Shown here: one piece after another, positions 1 through 10,497 of the stretch | Layout: each line of letters begins with the position of its first letter | Position numbering within the stretch: the first letter of the stretch is position 1 | Assembly (NCBI GenBank): GCA_049599895.1 | Contig: JBMYPC010000108.1 | Span: 1-10,497 of the forward strand | Direction of reading: 5' to 3' | DNA from: Bacteriovoracaceae bacterium | Lineage (GTDB): Bacteria; Bdellovibrionota; Bacteriovoracia; Bacteriovoracales; Bacteriovoracaceae | Length of the DNA stretch: 10,497 nucleotides | Program-made: the position numbers and the translations under genes | The notes under the pieces: model-generated | Databases searched by the model: none | Told to the model about the DNA's origin: nothing | Seen by the model: only the letters and a program-made list of their open reading frames with translations

Positions 1-1002
1 ACTAATCCCAAGAATAAGAAAGAAAAGACGGTTTCGATTCAATCAGAGGATAAGAACTCCAGAAACGAAAGAAAAATAAAACAAAAAGAGCTCGCTAAAA
101 AAACCAAAGCGAGAAAGAGCACAAAAAGAAAACAAACTCATAAAGTTGCCAAGTATTGTAACGAAATTCAAAAACGATTTAAAAAATACAGATGGGGTCA
201 AAGCCATTGTGAAAATTATAAATGGAATCATGTAAGAGACTCTTATCTTGGGAGACCTCTTATCTGGAAAGTCTTTGGAAATGAAAAAGAGGGATCTCTT
301 CGCTCTAAGAATGTGACACTTATTTTATGTGGAGTTCATGGTGATGAGATCACACCTGTTAAGTTTTGTTTTGATCTTCTTAAGCACTTAAGTCAGTTAG
401 ATCAAAAAAGTGATTCTGATGAGAAGCTTTGGAAGAATGAAGTGGTGGCCATCGCACCTATCGTAACTCCGGACAGTTTTTTTAAAAGAAGACCAACAAG
501 GACCAATCATAAAGGTGTCGATGTAAATCGAAACTTCCCAACTAAAGATTGGGCAAAAGATGCCATGAGAATATGGAAACACCGGTATCGAAGTGATCCA
601 AGAAGATATCCTGGTGAAAAACCATTAAGTGAGCACGAAACTGTTTTTCAGGTGAATCTTATAAAACGTTATAAACCTAGTAAGATCATTTCTGTTCACG
701 CCCCACTTACGATTATTGATTATGATGGGCCAGAGCATGGCGGATTATTTTCAGCTTCAAAAGCCAATAACCTTCTGATTCAAATGAGTAAAAAAGCTAA
801 GGGCTATAGGATTAAAAATTATCCTTTCTTTCCAGGAAGTCTTGGGAATTATGCGGGCAATGAAAGAAAGATTCCAACTTATACACTTGAGCTTCCAAGC
901 AGTGATTACACTAAACATAAGCGTTATTGGAAACTCTTTAAAGATTCAGTTTCTCATGCAATCTTTGAAGACCTTAGTCCAAAGACCGCTGCCAATCCTT
1001 AA
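1..1002 (+). CDS. M14 family zinc carboxypeptidase/amidase, murein peptide amidase A (MpaA)-like; 5'-truncated by the window edge
   Basis: Frame 1 is open from base 1 (TNPKNKKEK...YCNEIQKRF...SYLGRPLIWKVFG...) into the listed 313 ORF, so the GTG at 313 is not the real start. M14 motifs: GVHGDE (HxxE Zn ligands), GVDVNRNFP, YPGEKPLSEHET, ISVHAP (third Zn ligand), PGSLGNY, TLELP (catalytic Glu). Stop TAA at 1000-1002. Confidence 0.85.
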   Translation, partial: TNPKNKKEKTVSIQSEDKNSRNERKIKQKELAKKTKARKSTKRKQTHKVAKYCNEIQKRFKKYRWGQSHCENYKWNHVRDSYLGRPLIWKVFGNEKEGSLRSKNVTLILCGVHGDEITPVKFCFDLLKHLSQLDQKSDSDEKLWKNEVVAIAPIVTPDSFFKRRPTRTNHKGVDVNRNFPTKDWAKDAMRIWKHRYRSDPRRYPGEKPLSEHETVFQVNLIKRYKPSKIISVHAPLTIIDYDGPEHGGLFSASKANNLLIQMSKKAKGYRIKNYPFFPGSLGNYAGNERKIPTYTLELPSSDYTKHKRYWKLFKDSVSHAIFEDLSPKTAANP

Positions 1003-1005
1003 ACC

Positions 1006-2205
1006 TTATAGACAACTTTCAAAAGAGACAGCAACACCTTGACCAACCCCAACACACATTGTGGCAAGGCCCTTTTTAAGGTTTGAATTATCTTTCATTG
1101 AGTGAAAGAGAGTTGTAACAATTCGAGCTCCCGAGCAGCCAAGAGGATGGCCTAAAGCTATGGCGCCACCTTTTTGATTTACAATATTTTGCTCAATCTC
1201 AAGGTCTTTTAAACAGGCCAAACTTTGAATTGCAAAGGCTTCGTTAAGTTCAACCACATCATAATCTTTTGCTGCGATTCCAAACTTCTTTTGGATTTTC
1301 TGGACGGCACCCACTGGGCCAATTCCCATAATATTGGGTTCTACTCCATGAGTGGCAGCTCCTGAGATTCGCAGAATAGGTTTTAGGTTATGTTTCTTTA
1401 AAAAGGCTTCGCTAACAACCGCGACGAGTGCTGCTCCATCATTCATGCTTGAGGCATTTCCGGCTGTGACCGTACCATCTGCTTTAAAGACAGCTCTTAA
1501 CTTTGAAAGCTTCTCTAAAGAGGTATCGGGCCGTGGCCCTTCATCCTTTTCAAGAGTAAGGGTTGATTTTCTAAGGGCAATCTCAATGGGGAGAACCTCA
1601 TTTTTGAAAAGATCATTGTCCCAAGCTGCAATGGCTTTTTGATGAGAGTTTAAAGCAAATTGGTCTTGTTCTTCTCTTGAAATAGAGTAGTGTTTGTGGA
1701 GTTCTTCTGCAGTTTGTCCCATTCCAAAGAGAGGGAACATGGCCTCCATCTTGGGGTTTGGAAACCTCCAGCCGAAAGTCGTGTCATACATTTTAGAGTC
1801 CCGACCAAAAGGAGTTGATCCTTTTGAAACTACAAGTGGTGCGCGAGTCATACTTTCAGCTCCACCTACAAGAACACAATCAGCGTAACCTGCTTTAATC
1901 CTTGCACTGGCATCTAAGACTGCATCAAGGGATGAGGCACAGAGACGGTTAAGAGTGACTCCTGGGACTGAATAGGGGAAGCCTGCAAGGACCACGGCCA
2001 TTCTTGCAAGGTTTCGATTATCTTCTCCTGCTTGATTAGCACAACCAACGATAACTTCATCCACTTCTTCCATGGAAAAATCACTTTGTTTTTTAAAGTC
2101 GATTAAAAGATCGGCCATAAGATCATCGACTCTTTTATGAGAGAGACCGCCACCGAGTCTTCCAATGGGAGTTCTTTTGGCATAGATGAGGTAAGTCTCA
2201 GTCAT
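1006..2205 (-). CDS. paaJ: Thiolase, 3-oxoadipyl-CoA/3-oxo-5,6-dehydrosuberyl-CoA thiolase (PaaJ/PcaF type)
   Basis: Thiolase catalytic motifs NRLCASS, NEAFA, GAIALGHPLGCSG and CVGVGQG. PaaJ/PcaF-specific segments GCANQAGEDNRNLARM and DTTFGWRFPNP. AAGGA RBS upstream. Lies in a paa context. Confidence 0.88.
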   Translation of the reverse strand: MTETYLIYAKRTPIGRLGGGLSHKRVDDLMADLLIDFKKQSDFSMEEVDEVIVGCANQAGEDNRNLARMAVVLAGFPYSVPGVTLNRLCASSLDAVLDASARIKAGYADCVLVGGAESMTRAPLVVSKGSTPFGRDSKMYDTTFGWRFPNPKMEAMFPLFGMGQTAEELHKHYSISREEQDQFALNSHQKAIAAWDNDLFKNEVLPIEIALRKSTLTLEKDEGPRPDTSLEKLSKLRAVFKADGTVTAGNASSMNDGAALVAVVSEAFLKKHNLKPILRISGAATHGVEPNIMGIGPVGAVQKIQKKFGIAAKDYDVVELNEAFAIQSLACLKDLEIEQNIVNQKGGAIALGHPLGCSGARIVTTLFHSMKDNSNLKKGLATMCVGVGQGVAVSFESCL

Positions 2206-2218
2206 AGGGATATCCTTT

Positions 2219-2869
2219 TTAAATATCTTGTCTTAGAAGTTCCGAGCATGCGTAACGTTTATCTTTTTTGGCTTCAAAAAGATCATCAAGAAGATAGACA
2301 ATACTCTTGAGACTTCCTTTATCGGCCCATTCAAATGGGCCGAGGGGATAGTTTACGCCGTATTTCATTGCTGTATCAATATCTTCTTTTGTGCAAAGTC
2401 CATCTTCGAGAGAGAAGTAGGCTTCATTAATAATCATGGCAAGTGTTTGAGATAGGGGAAAAACATCATTTAAAACTTTGATTTCAAAACTTTCTAAAGA
2501 AAGTGTTTCTTGGGCCCAGCTTGTAAACTCTTTTTTATGATCATCAAGTTCTGAGTAAAGAAGCTCGAACTTATTCTTAGGAGAGTAAGTATTGAGGTTG
2601 AAGCAAAGTTTTAAAGCAGGGCAAATCTTTTTGTACTTTGGGATGTAATAAGCTCCAAGGTCTGAGTAAATTAGGGCAGAGCTTTTTTTATTGATATCCG
2701 ATAAGAGTTCCTCTTTTTGATTTGGTGGCAAAAGAGTGAGATCAAGAACAGTTCTTTCATTGAGAAGAGAGAAGTCTTTTTTTATCTCTACGAGGTCGAT
2801 ATAGTTTGGGAGAACTTTCACTCTCTCAAAGTGTGGGTGATCTGGGGTACAAAGGATATAATCAATCAT
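2219..2869 (-). CDS. 3-hydroxyacyl-CoA dehydrogenase C-terminal-domain protein (equivalent to the second half of PaaH)
   Basis: C-terminal 3HCDH dimerisation motif LAMIINEAYFSLEDG...EDIDTAMKYGVNYPLGPFEWAD. The N-terminal part is degenerate and has no GxGxxG. Its start overlaps the upstream stop in ATGATTGA (2869-2862). Confidence 0.75.
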   Translation of the reverse strand: MIDYILCTPDHPHFERVKVLPNYIDLVEIKKDFSLLNERTVLDLTLLPPNQKEELLSDINKKSSALIYSDLGAYYIPKYKKICPALKLCFNLNTYSPKNKFELLYSELDDHKKEFTSWAQETLSLESFEIKVLNDVFPLSQTLAMIINEAYFSLEDGLCTKEDIDTAMKYGVNYPLGPFEWADKGSLKSIVYLLDDLFEAKKDKRYACSELLRQDI

Positions 2870-3728
2870 ACTTATAAAATCCCTTTGATACCTTTTTCCC
2901 TATTCGTCCTGATTCCACCATCGACTTTTGAATGGGGTGGGGAGCGAATCGAGGCTCTCTATAAAACGCGTCCCAGACACATTCCGTGACATTGAGATTC
3001 ACATCAATTCCAATGAGATCCATTAATTGAAAGGGGCCTAATCGAAAGCCACCAACTTCTTGTAAAACGGAGTCATGTTCTTCCACTTTTTCAGTGTTGT
3101 TTTCTTTTATGATTCGAAAGGCTTCTCCATAAAAGTTTCTTGCCACTCTATTGACAATAAAGCCAGGAGAGTTCTTGCAGACAGCAATTCTCTTACCTTT
3201 ACTTTCAAAGTACTCTTTCATCCTCTGGATTAAGGCTTTTGAGATTGTCTTTGATTTCACAATCTCAACCAGCTTCATAATTGGGGCAGGATTGAAAAAA
3301 TGAATTCCACAAAACTTTACTTTGATTTTTTCAGGAAGAGCGGCACAAAGACCATCAATGGAAAGGGATGAAGTGTTGGTTGCCACAATTTGAGTGCTAT
3401 TGATTGTCTCAAGAACTTCATTAAAGAGTTTTACTTTAAGTTCAAAGATTTCGGGAACAGCTTCAAGCACCAGATCAAAGTCTTTATTCATGAGATTTTT
3501 CAGATCATTTTCAAAAGAAAGCTTTTTGTGAAAAGTTTTAACATGATCTTCTGAAAACTTTCCTTTTTCTTTGAGCTTATTCCACGAGAACGTAATTTGT
3601 TTATTGGCTTTTTCTGTTACTTCTTGAAAAGGATCGTAACAGACAACTTGAGCTTTTTGCTGAGCAAACCACTGAGCGATACCACTTCCCATGGTACCGC
3701 TTCCAATTATAAGAACTGTTTGAAACAT
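2862..3728 (-). CDS. paaH: 3-hydroxyacyl-CoA dehydrogenase, NAD-binding (PaaH-like, N-terminal half)
   Basis: Rossmann motif IIGSGTMGSGIA, plus LEAVPE, ATNTSSLSI, GIHFFNPAPIMKLVE (catalytic His/Glu), PGFIVNRVAR, GFRLGPFQLMDLIGIDVN and GRIGKKVSKGFY. Lies in a paa context. Confidence 0.85.
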   Translation of the reverse strand: MFQTVLIIGSGTMGSGIAQWFAQQKAQVVCYDPFQEVTEKANKQITFSWNKLKEKGKFSEDHVKTFHKKLSFENDLKNLMNKDFDLVLEAVPEIFELKVKLFNEVLETINSTQIVATNTSSLSIDGLCAALPEKIKVKFCGIHFFNPAPIMKLVEIVKSKTISKALIQRMKEYFESKGKRIAVCKNSPGFIVNRVARNFYGEAFRIIKENNTEKVEEHDSVLQEVGGFRLGPFQLMDLIGIDVNLNVTECVWDAFYREPRFAPHPIQKSMVESGRIGKKVSKGFYKYD

Positions 3729-3739
3729 GGGACCTTCAG

Positions 3740-4567
3740 TTATTGAGGCTGTTCAGTCTCATTATACTCAGGAATAACCAATCCCACTTCCTCACAAAGT
3801 GTTTTGATCTCAGCGATGAAAGTTTCTCTAATCGCCATATTGGTTCTTTTCTTAAGACCAAGCCTTACATAAAGATCGTTTCTTTTTCCTTTACCTCGAC
3901 CAAAGACATTCATGGTTCTTGGCCACCATATATTCAGTCGCTCTTGAAGAAATTCTTTCTCTTTAGGGTCTTTACCAAGAATTTTCACCCATTTATCACC
4001 ATGAGCAAGGTGCATCACTTCTTCTTTATAAATTCCTTCAATTCCTTTTTTCCAGGGAAGGTAACTACTATGGAGAGTGTCCTGAAGTTGGTGACCAGCT
4101 GCTCTATCCATTAAAAAGTTAAAAAGGATAAAGTCTGTCCAGTAGTTGATCCCATAATAGAAGATATTCACTCGGTAGTCGTTTTTAAGACGTTGAAAAC
4201 CAATATTCGCCTTATCTTCTTCGAGTTTATAACCCATCTCAGTGTTTTCAATGTGAGATGCTGCATCTTCACCTAGGCCTTCCAAGATTCTGTAGATAAC
4301 GGAAGCATGTCGCATTTCATCTTTTACAATTTGTGCCACTAAAACTTTCTCTTGAACCCCTGGTGCCTTTTCAATCCAAGGCATATAACCTAATGCTCCT
4401 GAGTATTCGCTATCTCCTTGCATCCATAAAAGGTTCAGAAGTGCTTTTCTATAGATTGGAGGAAGTTCATCACCTTTATCAAAAGTTCTTCCTTCTTTAA
4501 TTTCTTCAAAAAGTTTTAACTCTTCAGCGGAATATTCCGAATCTAAGTTTCTTGCTGCTTCACTCAT
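3740..4567 (-). CDS. Ferritin-like diiron ring-epoxidase subunit, PaaA/PaaC family (catalytic PaaA-like, divergent)
   Basis: GDSE...WIEKAP...EKVLVAQIVKDEMRH...YRILEGLG, NIFYY...WTD...FLMDRAAGHQL...SSYLPW...KEEVMHLAHG and QERLNIWWP...FG match the PaaA_PaaC family. Both ExxH motifs are present. Strong GAGGAGG RBS. Confidence 0.8.
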   Translation of the reverse strand: MSEAARNLDSEYSAEELKLFEEIKEGRTFDKGDELPPIYRKALLNLLWMQGDSEYSGALGYMPWIEKAPGVQEKVLVAQIVKDEMRHASVIYRILEGLGEDAASHIENTEMGYKLEEDKANIGFQRLKNDYRVNIFYYGINYWTDFILFNFLMDRAAGHQLQDTLHSSYLPWKKGIEGIYKEEVMHLAHGDKWVKILGKDPKEKEFLQERLNIWWPRTMNVFGRGKGKRNDLYVRLGLKKRTNMAIRETFIAEIKTLCEEVGLVIPEYNETEQPQ

Positions 4568-4580
4568 ATATCCTCCTCAA

Positions 4581-5342
4581 TTATTCAAAGCTTGGTGGGC
4601 GCTTCTCAAAAAAGGCCTTAAGGCCTTCTTGGTAGTTGGGATGATTTCCCAACATTCTTTGCCCGATAACTTCATTTTTTAAATTATGTTGAAATGTTGA
4701 TTCTTGTGATTCTTGTAAATTCTTTTTAACGATCGCCAGTGCATTTGGGCCACAGAGGGAGATCATTTTTGCTGCTTGTAAGGCTTTTTCCATTGGATCT
4801 TCAGAAAGATCATTAATGAGACCAACATTTTTCAACTCTTCAGCAAATAGGGGAGAGTTTGAAATGTAGAACTCGAAAGTCTTTTTAGGCCCAATCGAGC
4901 GACTGAGAAGATAAGTTGATCCTGCATCAAGGCAAAGGGCAAGTTTTCCAAAACCACCAACAAACTTTGTTTGAGGTTTACAATAAACAAGATCGCAATT
5001 GAGAGCAATTGAGACTCCCGCTCCAGCTGCCACACCATTTACTGCGGCAATTACTGGCTTTGAACTCTTCCTTATGGACTCAATTAGAGGGTTCCACTCT
5101 GTTTCGAGGGTTGTTCCTAGGTCTGTACCACCTCCAACATTACGATCATTGAGATCTTGACCTGTGCAAAAGGCTTTACCAGCACCTGTGAGAATGATTG
5201 AGCGTATACGAGAGTCTTCAGAGGCCTTGTTAATAATATCCGCCAGTTGAAGCTTATTTTCTTTCGAAAGACCGTTGTAAACCTCTGGGCGGTTAATAGT
5301 GATGATTTGGATGTTCTCTTTTATTTCGAACTCTATAGGCAC
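4581..5342 (-). CDS. paaG: Enoyl-CoA hydratase/isomerase family, ring-1,2-epoxyphenylacetyl-CoA isomerase (PaaG)
   Basis: INRPEVYN, LTGAGKAFCTGQDLNDRNV...DLG...WNPLI and KPVIAAVNGVAAGAG, a catalytic Asp in LCLDAG, and a C-terminal EGLKAFFEKRPPSF. The GQDLNDRNV segment is PaaG-like. GTG start with AGGAG 9 nt upstream. Confidence 0.82.
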   Translation of the reverse strand: MPIEFEIKENIQIITINRPEVYNGLSKENKLQLADIINKASEDSRIRSIILTGAGKAFCTGQDLNDRNVGGGTDLGTTLETEWNPLIESIRKSSKPVIAAVNGVAAGAGVSIALNCDLVYCKPQTKFVGGFGKLALCLDAGSTYLLSRSIGPKKTFEFYISNSPLFAEELKNVGLINDLSEDPMEKALQAAKMISLCGPNALAIVKKNLQESQESTFQHNLKNEVIGQRMLGNHPNYQEGLKAFFEKRPPSFE

Positions 5343-5541: not shown

Positions 5542-6462
5542 TTGTTAGAAAAAGAGAATATAAAATATCTGTTTCGAGAACTTAATCAGAGATTTGATAA
5601 ATCCGAGTTGTCTGATCTTCTTGAAGTTTCACGAAAGACCTTATCATCAGCAACAGAAAGAGGGGATATTGTTCTTTATGACCTGGTTCATATTTCTGAG
5701 AAGCTCAACATTGCAGTCGAAAATATTCTTTCACAAAACTATGATTTACCAGTTGCCTGCAATTATATTGAGGGCGAAAAGCAAACTCTTCCAAATCGCT
5801 ATAATCGTTGTTTTTCAAGCCGCATAAGAACTATTAAAAGTGCTTTAAGTCTTCTAGGGAAGATGTCAAAGCAGAACCAAGACTTTTTACTTCGTAAATT
5901 TCAGTTAACACCAGAAATTCTTGAAAATGAAGATGAGCTAATTGGGGGACAACTGCTTCTCGATATTTACTCTTATGTTGACTCTCAACCAATTTTTTCT
6001 GGGAAAAAAGTGTTTGAAATTTTAGGTCATTCAGCTTCAGATGCATTTAAGGGAAGCGAACTTGCTGGACATTTAAAAAATTATTCAGGAGCAAAGGAAG
6101 CCTTAGAATATTTTATTGAAGAATTAACTCCTATCGTTGAGACGAATCAGGATTACAAAATTCATAAATCTGATTCCAATAGCATAATTTTTTCTCACAA
6201 TGTAAAAGACTCAATCTCTGAATCATTGCAAACAGAACATTATGGAGGCCCAAATATGGACCTCCATATAAAGTCTTGGTTTTCTAACTTTACGACATTT
6301 ATTGGCCTACAGCCTGTTGAGGTAAAGAAACGATCTTGTGTCCAGGACGGTGATTCAACTTGCAAATACGAGCTATACTTTCCTCAGACTTTTTGGAAAC
6401 AACGATTCTTTGGTCCCAAACATTCTGATACTCCACAATGGCATCAAGGGAGTCTTGGCTAG
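5542..6462 (+). CDS. Putative transcriptional regulator: degenerate N-terminal XRE-type HTH plus C-terminal V4R/HNOB-like putative ligand-binding domain
   Basis: The N-terminus SELSDLLEVSRKTLSSATERG...LVHISEKLNIAVENIL fits an XRE HTH. The C-terminal VEVKKRSCVQDGDSTCKYEL fits the V4R-type C-x3-G-x3-C-x-[FY] motif. TTG start with AGGGA 9 nt upstream. Confidence 0.6.
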   Translation: MLEKENIKYLFRELNQRFDKSELSDLLEVSRKTLSSATERGDIVLYDLVHISEKLNIAVENILSQNYDLPVACNYIEGEKQTLPNRYNRCFSSRIRTIKSALSLLGKMSKQNQDFLLRKFQLTPEILENEDELIGGQLLLDIYSYVDSQPIFSGKKVFEILGHSASDAFKGSELAGHLKNYSGAKEALEYFIEELTPIVETNQDYKIHKSDSNSIIFSHNVKDSISESLQTEHYGGPNMDLHIKSWFSNFTTFIGLQPVEVKKRSCVQDGDSTCKYELYFPQTFWKQRFFGPKHSDTPQWHQGSLG

Positions 6463-7114
6463 GATTTTCGAAGGTTAAAATTTCAAAATCATCATTCATA
6501 AGCTGCTCAAGAGGGACTGCAGGCAATGTTCGACCTTCAAGTGATAGTGGTTCATAGCCAATTTTTTGAATAATGGTATTGGCCTTAGTGCGAAGTCTAC
6601 CAACACAAAATGAAAATGGGGTGTCAAACTCATAATGGTATTGAGCTACCAAAGGAAGAAAGAGCCGCAGAAGCGATGCTCTTGCTCTGCGATCTCTAAT
6701 TCTTGGGGCCATTGTAAAACTCGATGTATAAGCAACATCTCCCGTTTTTTCGACAACCGTTTCGATAAAGCTTTCAATAGCCTTAAGATGTTCTTTTATG
6801 TTCGCTTTTTTGATCATCTCATAACCTCCAAAAGGAAGATTATAAAATTTACTGTCATTTTTTGTGATGGCCTTTGTACATAGTAATGGTTCTAAGCCTT
6901 CATCATTTTGTTCGCAGACTAAAAGATGGGTGCCAATTGTATCTGTTGTATCAATGGCAAGATAACCTGTTTCTAATGTGCGAAAACCATCAGACTTTAA
7001 CTTTAGAACTTTTCCAAAGAAATCTCTGAATTCTGGTATGTGCATAAATTTTAATGGATTATCAACCATAACGATTTGATAATTTGATTTCTTATCAATA
7101 TTAATTACTGACAT
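6299..7114 (-). CDS. GNAT-fold protein, divergent LuxI/FeeM-like putative N-acyl synthase
   Basis: Motif order resembles acyl-HSL/N-acyl amino acid synthases: VLKLKSDGF (cf. LRxxVF), IDTTDTIGTHLLV (cf. DxxD...HLL), LLCTKAI (cf. VGxxRL), LPF, AYTSSFTMAPRIR (cf. ELSRF..P..R), IIQKIGYEPL (cf. xxRxG). Strong TAAGGAG RBS. The canonical Trp and several Arg/Glu residues of LuxI are substituted. Confidence 0.5.
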   Translation of the reverse strand: MSVINIDKKSNYQIVMVDNPLKFMHIPEFRDFFGKVLKLKSDGFRTLETGYLAIDTTDTIGTHLLVCEQNDEGLEPLLCTKAITKNDSKFYNLPFGGYEMIKKANIKEHLKAIESFIETVVEKTGDVAYTSSFTMAPRIRDRRARASLLRLFLPLVAQYHYEFDTPFSFCVGRLRTKANTIIQKIGYEPLSLEGRTLPAVPLEQLMNDDFEILTFENPSQDSLDAIVEYQNVWDQRIVVSKKSEESIARICKLNHRPGHKIVSLPQQAVGQ

Positions 7115-7155
7115 GCTTACTCCTTAAGCCGATTCCCTTCCTGGGAAAAGTCAAT

Positions 7156-7944
7156 TCACTTAGTTCCTTTTGTAATAAACTTTGTATGAAACAGTGGGGT
7201 TAGGGGATTTTGAATTTCTTCAAGATAGGCATTAATGAAGTCATCAATCGAGCTTTTGTTTGTAAAGACTCTATTAAGAGAAGGGCGAATGAGCTCACAT
7301 CGACTTCTGTTATTCTCTATTTCTTCATTTCTATCTTTCCCTTTAAAATCATGAAAAGTTGTCTTCCATTCAATGTCTTTAAACTGTTCAAGGTTAAACA
7401 TTTGAGGGAGTTTGCGACCAATAAATAAATCGACTCCAAGTTTTGTATTGAGACTTTCAAGGTCTGACTGAAGTTTTTGATTTAAGGTTCCAATATTAAG
7501 AAAAAGGCCATCAAAGTCGATAATGATTAATTGACCACCAGGTTTTAGAACTCGTTTAAGAGATTTGATAAGACCTTGACGGTTATCAACATGTTCAATG
7601 ACGTAACGGCAGATAATTTTATCGAAAGTATTATCAGCGAACTCTAAGTCAAAAAGGTTTTGTTTTGCATAATGAATTTGATTATTATGGATTCCCAGCT
7701 GAGAGTTTTTAGCAATTTCAACTCGATCTAAGGATTGATCGACACCAAATATTTCAAGATTGTGGTTTGGATAATTTTCGCATAAAAACTTAGAGACGAT
7801 TCCTGTTCCACATCCTGCATCTAAAACTTTTTCGTTCTCTGAAAATGTAACGCCTAACAACTCTTGATCTACGCTGTAATGCTTTTGGCGACTTTGTTTT
7901 TCTAGCCTTCGGCCTTCACCTGAGTTCTCGAGGACATAACCCAT
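7156..7944 (-). CDS. Class I SAM-dependent methyltransferase (small-molecule type)
   Basis: Motif I VLDAGCGTG, acidic GVD, FADNTFDKIICRYVIEHV and LKRVLKPGGQLIIID, with an N-terminal ExxRLxxQ. Start reassigned from TTG 7980 to ATG 7944, which has TAAGGAG 9 nt upstream (262 aa). Confidence 0.88.
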   Translation of the reverse strand: MGYVLENSGEGRRLEKQSRQKHYSVDQELLGVTFSENEKVLDAGCGTGIVSKFLCENYPNHNLEIFGVDQSLDRVEIAKNSQLGIHNNQIHYAKQNLFDLEFADNTFDKIICRYVIEHVDNRQGLIKSLKRVLKPGGQLIIIDFDGLFLNIGTLNQKLQSDLESLNTKLGVDLFIGRKLPQMFNLEQFKDIEWKTTFHDFKGKDRNEEIENNRSRCELIRPSLNRVFTNKSSIDDFINAYLEEIQNPLTPLFHTKFITKGTK

Positions 7945-8002
7945 AATAATTAACTCCTTAAGTCTTGCTGTGATTGGCAAGATTATTTCTATCTAATGGA
8001 AT

Positions 8003-8108
8003 TATTCTATAAGGAATAGAATAGAGCGACAGTCAGCATTTTTTTCCAGGATGAATAAAAATGCACTATAAGATTTTTTTACTTGATAGATTTATTCTCA
8101 TTAGAATA
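8003..8108. promoter_or_regulatory. Three palindromic operator-like boxes, TATTC-N6-GAATA, in the divergent promoter region
   Basis: TATTCtataagGAATA at 8003-8018, TTTTCcaggatGAATA at 8042-8057 (one mismatch), TATTCtcattaGAATA at 8093-8108. Boxes 1 and 3 share the extended flanks TTATTCT...GAATAGA. Confidence 0.65.
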
Positions 8109-8164
8109 GATTAGTGATAAATTTAACGATTATCTAAGTGTTATAAGTTGTTGAAAATACAAGA

Positions 8165-8965
8165 ATGAAAAGAACTAGAGAAGACTTTCTCCATTTAACC
8201 GGTCAGTTATTAAAAGCCGTAAGGGCCATGAAAGGGATAAACCAGTCCCAGCTCGCTACAATTCTCAAAATTTCTCAATCAAAAATCTCAAAAATTGAGT
8301 CTGGAAATCTTGAACTAAGTGCCATTGAGTATGTTGGCCTGTGTCGTTACGCAGATATTAACTTTGATTGTATTGAGAAGGGCTATATTGATGTTTTTCA
8401 TCAAAGAAATGGCTTAGGACAACAAGGGACGATATCTCGAACTCCACAAACTGGTAATGCCTTTAAGTCACGTTTTTTAATGCCATACGTACAATTCGCG
8501 AAAGTCTCTGGGTTTGCCGTAAATGAATTAGTTGGATTAAGTGATCTTGAACTGATCCTGCTCGATAGCGAAATTCCTAACGCTAAAGTTGTCGAGCTTA
8601 TAAAAGACGAGAGGTTTGGCTCTAAATCTTTTAGGGATTTTTATAAAGAGAACTTTAAAAGTGATCTTTTCCATGGAGAGATTCATCATTATCTTGAAAA
8701 TAGTCTCAACACAGTTGAGGTGTTTAAAAAGTACTTTGAAGTTTCAGATCAATATGAGTCAGTCCTTAACAAAAAGATTGTTTATTCAGATGAAAAGAGG
8801 CTCGACTTTGAAGTTACCCCAGGAGATTTCTGGGGAGACAATATGGTTCAGCATCTTGATTTCTTCTATTCAAACCTTTGTTCTTATGGAGGTGAGATGT
8901 CTCAAAATATCCTTAAAAAATCTAAGCAATTAAATTCAACTCTTTATTCTCTGAAAGTAAGTTAA
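8165..8965 (+). CDS. XRE-family (HTH_3) transcriptional regulator with a C-terminal domain related to that of the 5542-6462 protein
   Basis: Clear XRE HTH: GQLLKAVRAMKGINQSQLATILKISQSKISKIESGNLELS. Transcribed divergently from the methyltransferase. The C-terminal segment aligns by eye with the other regulator. Confidence 0.8.
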   Translation: MKRTREDFLHLTGQLLKAVRAMKGINQSQLATILKISQSKISKIESGNLELSAIEYVGLCRYADINFDCIEKGYIDVFHQRNGLGQQGTISRTPQTGNAFKSRFLMPYVQFAKVSGFAVNELVGLSDLELILLDSEIPNAKVVELIKDERFGSKSFRDFYKENFKSDLFHGEIHHYLENSLNTVEVFKKYFEVSDQYESVLNKKIVYSDEKRLDFEVTPGDFWGDNMVQHLDFFYSNLCSYGGEMSQNILKKSKQLNSTLYSLKVS

Positions 8966-8978
8966 TTATCGGTGACCC

Positions 8979-9800
8979 ATGCAAAAAAATACGATCGAAA
9001 TCAAGGGAAAGACGCTCTCTTTTTTAACAAAAAACGAGGGCCCAGAAAAAGCTCTTCTTTTTGTTCATGGGAACTCCTTATCAAAAGATATTTTTCAATC
9101 ACAGATAGAAAGCCTGGCGAAGACAGGGGCTTATTGTATTGCTGTGGACCTTCCGGGTCATGGCGAGTCTTCAAAGCGACTTGAGAATGAAAGTTATTCA
9201 CTAGATTATTATGCTGAAACGCTTAAAGATTTTTGTTCAATACTTGGTCTACAAAAAATTACTTTTTTCGGACATAGTCTTGCTGGACATATCGGAAGTC
9301 ATCTTTTTCAAAAAAAACCGGACTTGTTTGAAGCTTTAATTACATTGGCAACTCCACCTGTTAGTGACGTGGATTCAATGGGAAAAGCGTTCCATCCTCA
9401 TGAAGCGCTTCCATCGCTTGTAACTGGTGATCTTTCTTCAGAGCAGGTTGAGTTTCTTGCCAAAGCATGTTTGGACTCTGAAATGCATGTAAAAGAAGTT
9501 TCAGAGATGATTGTAAAGACTGATCCTCGAACTCGTGATGAACTAGGGAAGTCTCTTGTGTCAGGGAACTTTCAAAATGAGATTGAAATTCTTAAGAACT
9601 CAAACATTGCTTATCTTAATATTTTTAGCGCAAATGACGAGATCGTCTCTTCTGAATACATCAAAAGTCTTCCAATTTTCAGTTTGAAAAATCAAAAAGT
9701 TACAGAAGTTCAGTCTTCTCATAATGCCATTCTCGAAGACCCTGATAAGGTCAAAGTCATTATTGAGGACTTCCTTAATGGGGTTGGTCTTAGCCTCTAA
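8979..9800 (+). CDS. Alpha/beta-fold hydrolase, AidH-like (putative N-acyl-homoserine lactonase)
   Basis: HGNSLSKDIFQSQ, DLPGHGES, SYSLDYYA, nucleophile elbow FGHSLAGHIG (Ser100), TPPV, KTDPRTR, acid Asp220 and His248. The motif series matches Ochrobactrum AidH as I recall it (HGNSSSGAIFAPQ, DLPGHGKS, SYSMEGYA, FGWSLGGHIG, GTPPV, RTDGRAR). The fold is confident; the substrate is inferred. Confidence 0.85.
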   Translation: MQKNTIEIKGKTLSFLTKNEGPEKALLFVHGNSLSKDIFQSQIESLAKTGAYCIAVDLPGHGESSKRLENESYSLDYYAETLKDFCSILGLQKITFFGHSLAGHIGSHLFQKKPDLFEALITLATPPVSDVDSMGKAFHPHEALPSLVTGDLSSEQVEFLAKACLDSEMHVKEVSEMIVKTDPRTRDELGKSLVSGNFQNEIEILKNSNIAYLNIFSANDEIVSSEYIKSLPIFSLKNQKVTEVQSSHNAILEDPDKVKVIIEDFLNGVGLSL

Positions 9801-9807
9801 AGCCCTT

Positions 9808-10497
9808 TTAAAGATAGCCTCGTTTTTCTTGATCTTTTTCAATGGCATCAAACAGCGCTTGAAAATTACCTTCACCAAAGCCGTTATGTTTCTTTCTTTG
9901 AATTAATTCAAAGAACAAAGGCCCAATATAAGTGTCAGTGAAGTTTTGTAAGAGATAGCCTTCAGCATCTCCATCAACTAAAAGTTGTCGGTCTTCGAGA
10001 AGTTTAAGATCTTCTTCAACTTTAAAGCCTCGGTTTGGTATGGCCTCATAATAAGTGTGAGGAATATCGAGGAAGCGAACACCTCGAGATTGAAGATCAC
10101 CTACAGACTCGGTTATGTCGGCAGTTGTTAAAGCAATGTGCTGAACACCTGGTCCATTATGACGATCGATGAACTCTTGAATTTGAGACTTTGAGTCAGA
10201 ACGGTCAGGTTCATTAATAGGAATAATGACATTGCCATTTTCAAGTTGAACAACCTCTGAAAGAAGGCCAGTTTTTAGACCTTTAATATCAAAGTAGCGA
10301 GTGACTTTGAATCCGTAGATTTGTTTATAGAATTCAACCCATTTTTTCATTTCACCTTTTGGGACATTGTTGGTGATGTGGTCAATTCTTGAAACTCTTT
10401 GTGCTAGTGGCTTTGCTTCGGGATCGGATTCAACTTTTGTATATCCTGGTCGAAACAGGCTTTTTGGCCTTTCAATAAATTCATTAACAACATCCCC
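9808..10497 (-). CDS. hppD: 4-hydroxyphenylpyruvate dioxygenase; 5'-truncated by the window edge
   Basis: The frame is open from 10497 (GDVVNEFIERP...RIDHITNNVPKGEMKKW), so the listed 10350 start is internal. Fe-ligand motifs DHITNNV, GPGVQHIAL and FFELIQRK, plus IPINEP, SQIQEF, YLLQNFT and GFGEGNFQALF. Confidence 0.93.
   Translation of the reverse strand, partial: GDVVNEFIERPKSLFRPGYTKVESDPEAKPLAQRVSRIDHITNNVPKGEMKKWVEFYKQIYGFKVTRYFDIKGLKTGLLSEVVQLENGNVIIPINEPDRSDSKSQIQEFIDRHNGPGVQHIALTTADITESVGDLQSRGVRFLDIPHTYYEAIPNRGFKVEEDLKLLEDRQLLVDGDAEGYLLQNFTDTYIGPLFFELIQRKKHNGFGEGNFQALFDAIEKDQEKRGYL

Follow-up and report, generated by a model that had tools for sequence, protein, structure and literature searches.

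In quorum-sensing systems of the LuxI/LuxR type (e.g. BjaI, RpaI, LasI, and TraI), the synthase gene lies beside the gene for a ligand-binding regulator, a palindromic box is present at the synthase promoter, the regulon includes unlinked genes, and receptor solos occur. For Bdellovibrionota, a genome comparison states that no synthase of acyl-homoserine lactones (acyl-HSLs, AHLs) was found, and other regulators are supposed (bioRxiv 10.1101/2020.11.01.364414). Here, we describe a gene cassette on contig JBMYPC010000108.1 of the Bacteriovoracaceae bacterium assembly GCA_049599895.1 (Bdellovibrionota; 3.27 Mb, 37.7% GC, 97% complete); the whole contig of 10,497 nt is referred to as the window. 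The cassette consists of five closely spaced open reading frames (ORFs), all of which were found where an initial annotation, made from the sequence alone, had placed them, i.e. the genes for a LuxI/FeeM-fold N-acyltransferase (the putative signal synthase), an S-adenosylmethionine (SAM) methyltransferase, two regulators (A and B), and an AidH-like hydrolase (Table 1). The annotation took the cassette to synthesise, methylate, sense, and degrade a signal; the five-gene observation is confirmed and the interpretation is partly supported. We assign a probability of roughly 0.6 to the reading that the genes encode an autoinducer-type, quorum-sensing-like circuit of Bdellovibrionota, the signal of which would be an N-acyl amide other than an AHL. 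A literature search yielded no description of this cassette.

The cassette shares the above-mentioned features and the synthase fold with LuxI/LuxR systems, and its hydrolase is related to AidH. Unlike these systems, it has paired putative receptors with an XRE-type helix-turn-helix (HTH) and an H-NOX/V4R-fold domain instead of LuxR, a synthase that appears to lack four LuxI signature residues, an extra finishing enzyme, and a different box. The absence of LuxR, noted before for the window, extends to the 97%-complete genome, in which Autoind_bind had no match; the control search matched in E. coli. Bacteroidota have an N-acyl-cyclolysine (ACL) system, in which lysine is reportedly acylated and the second step is an ATP-dependent ring closure. 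This system (Linares-Otoya, 2025) resembles the cassette in its phylum-specific two-enzyme synthesis and in a dedicated regulator beside the synthesis genes that is released from promoters (PMC13080023, PMC13419125). In contrast, ACL is read by a LuxR-family repressor, while the cassette has two XRE-V4R proteins and no LuxR-family receptor, and it adds a methyltransferase alternative and linked hydrolases. The OxzAB, TyzABC, TrzAS, and stieleriacine clusters combine an N-acyltransferase with a ThiF-like cyclase, as do sister cassettes of the one in the window, and the Stieleria clusters also carry a methyltransferase. These described clusters depend on a nitroreductase and contain both ThiF and a methyltransferase, whereas in the cassettes no nitroreductase recurs in the neighbour families scanned, the two enzymes are mutually exclusive, and sensors and an operator are attached.

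Two further groups of described systems share single traits with the cassette. The pocket fold is known from the sensors MopR, PoxR, DmpR, VirS, and CdpR, and the Cys pattern recurs in type A regulators; the regulators of the cassette differ in being synthase-linked and fused to an N-terminal XRE HTH, not to AAA+ or AraC. Such sensors would be of a kind not seen before in signalling systems of this type. The Ralstonia signal 3-hydroxypalmitic acid methyl ester (3-OH PAME) has no amide and is sensed by a kinase. Together with the myristic acid analogue (MAME) and the methyl esters of N-acylated alanine (NAMEs) of Roseovarius, it exemplifies methyl esters that act as signals or look like AHLs. 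For NAMEs, no receptor is known. Their synthase genes are described as unidentified (PMC11580390).

The LuxI/GNAT fold that had been claimed for the synthase was borne out by structural matching of the predicted model. The top four matches are AHL synthases, FeeM follows within ~1 Z, and small-molecule synthases outrank protein acetylases. A likeness to FeeM/OxzA-type enzymes is seen in both fold and profile. The synthase profile matched FeeM/Acetyltransf_5-like proteins at 74% (E 3e-5), compared to 0.4% for TraI, a value from a shallow profile and a weak alignment. Pfam FeeM matched one of 71 family members (E 0.007), and atlas neighbours of the synthase at 0.90-0.91 carry FeeM/Acetyltransf_5. 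The family is present in 96 of 401 Bdellovibrionota genomes and is annotated as hypothetical in cultured strains. The source genome also contains a separate FeeM-domain gene, barely above the cut-off (L111, G000:C116:5125-5448); genes of this sort occur in 57 of 101 Bdellovibrionota genomes.

The initial annotation had suggested a check for co-occurrence of the families across genomes. We analysed the flanks (~6 kb per side) of 80 out of 85 synthase matches other than the window itself, leaving out the five weakest, and 20 further loci. The families do co-occur in the 80 loci. Regulator A is present in 72, regulator B in 57, and either of them in 73; the methyltransferase is found in 41 (27-43% identity) and a ThiF adenylylase in 25. 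The two finishing enzymes occur together in a single locus, where a longer methyltransferase lies ~2 kb away, and in none of the 20 further loci. Hydrolases of three families are present in 41 loci (AidH-like, 15; H5, 19; H6, 9). Within the 80 loci, AidH-like (15/15) and H6 (9/9) hydrolases are found only alongside the methyltransferase, and H5 alongside either finishing enzyme. The complete set of the window recurs in 14 loci. The five-gene cassette holds as a conserved set, but it is one version of a modular cassette. The core consists of the synthase and regulator A (plus B), and in about one in three loci ThiF takes the place of the methyltransferase. Gene order is shuffled, with regulator A adjacent and tail-to-tail to the synthase in 52 of 81 cases, and kinases and response regulators are frequent nearby.

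At least 10 switches between methyltransferase and ThiF are seen on a tree of 80 synthase rows, which was built by a quick method and has many long branches. One switch lies inside a clade with a support of 100 and separates synthases of 61% identity, i.e. those of L069 (ThiF and H5) and of L055/L088 (methyltransferase and AidH-like hydrolase). In the further set, six loci have ThiF, H5, synthase, and regulator A, and seven contain regulators without a synthase, two of which keep a hydrolase. The receptor-only genomes are 91-99% complete, and the synthase profile found no match in them; these loci may be analogous to LuxR solos.

V4R-like sensor domains, which had been proposed for both regulators, are supported by V4R matches (25 of 65 type A proteins) and by the predicted model of regulator A, an XRE domain joined to an H-NOX/V4R-fold domain. 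The two regulators are homologous from end to end (hhalign 99.9%) and share HTH and sensor fold, in agreement with the earlier view of two related sensors. They are not equivalent, however: 123 full-length regulators split into two clades, 73 A-like and 50 B-like, with a Shimodaira-Hasegawa-like approximate likelihood ratio (SH-aLRT) support of 100, and regulator B of the window forms a long branch. Three V4R-type Cys columns reach 66, 65, and 58% in type A (n=65); regulator A of the window keeps two Cys (C266, C274; D240), and regulator B none. Because the HTH is better conserved in B than in A (mean column identity 0.46 vs 0.31) and similarity among synthases is followed more closely by A (rho 0.52) than by B (0.33; 52 loci), regulator B appears to be the DNA binder and A its signal-specific partner. 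The residues R20, Q27, Q38, S42, and E45 of regulator B are conserved at ≥90%. Possibly, the pair forms a heterodimer of sensor and DNA binder. A second regulator-B-like gene is present, unlinked, in the source genome (77 bits; G000:C83:2839-3654).

Three operator-like palindromes had been reported for the divergent promoter. With arms of at least 8 and one mismatch we found four in 220 bp, whereas 300 shuffles gave 1.26 (P about 0.017); shortening the arms to 7 leaves no significant excess (4 vs 2.7, P 0.23). Two of the four are copies of a conserved operator, TATTC(C/T)-N4-(G/A)GAATA, and share the form TATTCT-N4-RGAATA; operator 2 overlaps a −10-like TAGAAT at 8102-8107. Among 117 upstream regions of units for the synthase, the methyltransferase, or ThiF, the dyad ATTC-N6-GAAT is the top word and occurs in 30 compared to 0.9 in shuffles (divergent regions counted twice, window included). 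A matrix built from 48 sites in 30 other loci, with the window held out, identified exactly two sites of ≥9 bits in the 10.5-kb window, both in the divergent promoter. Promoter-proximal sites were found in 31 of 80 loci, compared to 0-3 with each of 30 permuted matrices; these regions had served to train the real matrix. They are present in 29 of the 57 loci with regulator B, but in 2 of the 23 without it, and regulator B likely binds this operator.

The source genome lay outside the training. Its top 15 sites include 10 non-coding sites and 9 in promoter zones, one of them that of the cassette, compared to at most 7 and 5, respectively, for the top 15 of 60 permuted matrices (zones cover 8.8% of the genome). 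Genes behind unlinked sites include those for response regulators, a receiver-HD protein, and an M10 peptidase; several others encode unnamed proteins whose starts, as judged by eye, resemble signal peptides. In two cassette genomes, 12 of 20 off-cassette exact sites are non-coding and 11 of 20 promoter-proximal, compared to 2 of 20 in both respects in two cassette-free genomes (Fisher P 0.002 and 0.006); the genomes are few and related, and the ORF calls are crude. The sampled sites were 14/17 and 6/10 for the cassette genomes and 13/13 and 7/8 for the cassette-free ones. Once more, the targets seem to be secreted or regulatory proteins, and one starts like what we take to be a type IV pilin. 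Two operator-associated loci of the source genome were also noted. L158:2489-7451 (G000:C82) has an operator-like site at 3450, flanked on one side by a secreted-looking gene and on the other by an operon for a spermidine-synthase-like protein, two DUF6445 proteins, and a major facilitator superfamily transporter, possibly a second small biosynthetic unit. In L159 (G000:C140), two such sites precede three large unnamed secreted-looking proteins, beside a trypsin-like protease.

The AidH likeness of the hydrolase, part of the initial annotation, holds: AidH is its best solved relative, and S100, D220, and H248 align with AidH Ser102, Glu219, and His248. The HGNS motif is present, and N32, L101, and F138 are kept as well. 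The position of Tyr160, which binds the lactone oxygen from the cap domain of AidH (PMC3532132), is occupied by Leu160, and Leu is also the consensus of 14 relatives. As the triad is kept but Tyr160 is not, the enzyme is compatible with an esterase or lactonase of another specificity than AidH. Carboxyl methyltransferases (JHAMT, LahSB) are among many generic matches of the methyltransferase, the conserved residues of which are Y3, E10, R13, L14, Q17, R113, R177, and E208. The ThiF enzymes OxzB, TyzB, and TrzS are reported to cyclise N-acyl amino acids with ATP. By analogy, the methyltransferase would act on the carboxyl group of the product, because it exchanges with ThiF and pairs with a serine hydrolase. 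The best full-length PDB matches of the sister ThiF are 9EGB/9EGC/9EGD, which we guess to be AclA. The window cassette contains no ThiF, and outside it the ThiF-like genes of the genome reach at most 93 bits vs 227-286 for cassette members. No nitroreductase was found in the window or among 43 neighbour proteins scanned.

In the proposed circuit, the LuxI/FeeM-fold enzyme would join acyl-coenzyme A (acyl-CoA) or acyl-acyl carrier protein (acyl-ACP) to an amino acid or amine, as its fold suggests. The methyltransferase would cap the carboxyl group, giving a neutral methyl ester or, via the ester, a ring; in sister cassettes, ThiF with ATP would do the equivalent job. The best reading of the signal is thus an N-acyl amino acid that may be methyl-esterified or ring-closed. 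Within this model, a methyl ester would be the leading candidate, a lactone, lactam, or oxazolone ring would come next, and another methylation would be a minority option. The product would bind to the pocket of regulator A and/or B. Regulator B would act on TATTCY-N4-RGAATA near the promoters of the synthesis operon and of itself with the hydrolase, and also at unlinked genes for secreted and signalling proteins. Most likely the signal would lift repression, giving positive feedback, and the co-regulated hydrolase would cleave the ester or lactone and reset the switch.

In one alternative, the synthase would be a true AHL synthase that has diverged deeply and uses SAM and an acyl donor, with XRE-V4R proteins replacing LuxR, the hydrolase acting as an AHL lactonase, and the methyltransferase or ThiF modifying or re-closing the ring. 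The ranking of structural matches, the relationship to AidH, and the loci with a synthase but neither finishing enzyme agree with this, as does an alignment of K40, F44, D55, D58, and K81 with TraI R25, F29, D46, D49, and R70 (a weak profile alignment, prob 0.4%). The same alignment has no counterpart of TraI W35, E44, E101, and R104, which are invariant in 23 TraI relatives, and the profile comparison favours FeeM/Acetyltransf_5-like proteins. Autoind_synth had no Pfam match in the window synthase and matched 0 of 71 relatives, among 25 of the 28 families listed; none was found in the 97%-complete genome either, a weak blank, as the same search matched 0 of 14 control genomes. Identity to LuxI-type enzymes is 9-15%, and a lactone that is already closed has no need of carboxyl activation. 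Because this weak alignment leaves E101, R104, W35, and E44 unmatched and the hydrolase has Leu in place of AidH Tyr160, a plain acyl-HSL is probably not the product, and we regard a true AHL synthase as unlikely.

Somewhat higher, but still improbable, we rank the reading that the cluster is regulated through feedback sensing, has no role between cells, and makes either a lipid, bioactive or of the membrane (an oxazolone, an ester, or an N-acyl amino acid), or a messenger that acts inside the cell. The oxazolone, tyrosine, and stieleriacine clusters discussed above have such an enzyme composition and no proven signalling role; tryptazolones are described as mostly retained in cells (PMC12856293), and single loci contain further tailoring genes. 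The dedicated regulator pair, the receptor-only loci, the degrading enzyme on the same operator, and the unlinked sites suit a signal better than an end product. A GNAT that acylates protein or tRNA as a toxin or post-translational switch, with the XRE proteins as antitoxins or targets, would fit the GNAT fold, weak matches of the XRE HTH to antitoxin models, and the protein-activating relatives of ThiF. It is made very improbable by the rank of small-molecule synthases above protein acetylases, the 200-aa pocket domain of the regulators, the small-molecule tailoring genes nearby, and the lack of a PADLOC match for synthase, regulator A, and hydrolase. Least probable are haem-based NO/O2 sensors of the H-NOX type controlling adjacent enzymes: among 65 type A proteins, no His column of ≥30% lies in the helix before the sheet, the position of the proximal histidine deduced from the fold, and the conserved ligands are the three V4R-type Cys.

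Several results weigh against the circuit. For 49 of 80 loci, 28 of them with regulator B, no operator was found close to the genes, and the matrix scored upstream regions on which it had been trained. Raw exact-pattern counts do not separate cassette genomes (4-17, n=5) from cassette-free ones (2-13, n=5). Fifteen of the 80 loci lack both finishing enzymes within 6 kb; therefore, the finishing step may be optional. Seven have no regulator, and several of all these loci are short contigs. The best solved relative of the methyltransferase (3MGG) is uncharacterised, and no characterised close relative was found. The loci come from related, not independent, genomes; a paired test of hydrolase and methyltransferase had three well-supported independent pairs and was not significant, and in L180, the sole exception among the 20 further loci, an AidH-like gene is paired with ThiF.

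Both gaps given in the initial annotation are correct, i.e. 41 bp between methyltransferase and synthase and 13 bp between regulator B and hydrolase, and so is the common element CTTAAGGAGT ahead of both minus-strand genes. It is a ribosome-binding site and occurs 14 times in the genome. The methyltransferase starts with ATG, and an in-frame TTG at 7980 sits upstream of its ribosome-binding site. The genes for regulator A and synthase overlap tail-to-tail by 164 bp (6299-6462), and both tails are of low confidence in the predicted models. A hairpin may be the terminator of the methyltransferase-synthase transcript; terminator-like sites in the region are not above chance (3 vs 2.6). Each cassette gene is single-copy in the source genome (tblastn).

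Table 1 Positions of cassette features in the window
Feature	Position	Strand	Details
Regulator A	5542..6462	+	N-terminal XRE-type HTH, C-terminal predicted H-NOX/V4R-fold pocket domain
Hairpin	6241..6268	-	12 pairs, 31 bp past synthase stop, within regulator A coding sequence
LuxI/FeeM-fold N-acyltransferase, putative signal synthase	6299..7114	-	271 aa, unnamed family
Ribosome-binding site of synthase	7119..7128	-	CTTAAGGAGT
Class I SAM methyltransferase	7156..7944	-	Cassette-linked family, alternative to ThiF; Methyltransf_31, E 4e-21
Ribosome-binding site of methyltransferase	7953..7962	-	CTTAAGGAGT
Operator 1	8003..8018		TATTCTATAAGGAATA; 58 bp upstream of methyltransferase ATG; 16.5 bits
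Operator 2	8093..8108		TATTCTCATTAGAATA; 56 bp upstream of regulator B; 14.4 bits
Regulator B	8165..8965	+	HTH_19 and HTH_3 above cut-off; same sensor fold as regulator A
AidH-like alpha/beta serine hydrolase, putative signal esterase/lactonase	8979..9800	+	Best PDB match AidH 4G5X, E 1.7e-22

The flank at 1006-5342 (minus strand) contains phenylacetate-type catabolic genes, i.e. for an enoyl-CoA hydratase, a single PaaA-like protein, a 3-hydroxyacyl-CoA dehydrogenase with a separate gene for its C-terminal domain, and a thiolase. On the other side, a glyoxalase-fold gene (9808-10497, minus strand) encodes a protein that presumably resembles 4-hydroxyphenylpyruvate dioxygenase. The cassette, slightly lower in GC, seems to be inserted between the two; an M14 zinc carboxypeptidase gene (1-1002, plus strand) is open at the contig start. 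Elsewhere, tailoring variants beside the synthase include an argininosuccinate-synthase relative (L051, L106, L107), a di-iron oxidase with an unnamed protein (L094, L104), a pyridoxal phosphate enzyme after ThiF (L042, L048, L062, L063), and an acyl-CoA dehydrogenase (L034, L050), and some loci also add an acyltransferase. In L098:7592-9217, AidH-like hydrolase and regulator B form a single ORF of 541 aa, a fusion or an assembly error.

This analysis newly describes the exchange between methyltransferase and ThiF, the split of the regulators into two clades, the operator, its unlinked sites, and loci with receptors only. More tentatively, and at somewhat less than even odds, they may together represent quorum sensing of predatory Bdellovibrionota, with a diffusible N-acyl amino acid derivative completed by either carboxyl methylation (SAM) or ring closure (ATP), an XRE-H-NOX/V4R receptor pair of a new class acting on the conserved operator, a regulon of secreted proteins, pilin-like and two-component genes, and receptor-only eavesdroppers. 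With the cassette in about a quarter of the sampled Bdellovibrionota genomes, it would make it possible to test directly whether signalling takes place among these predators, for which it supplies the genes, a predicted operator, and candidate targets.

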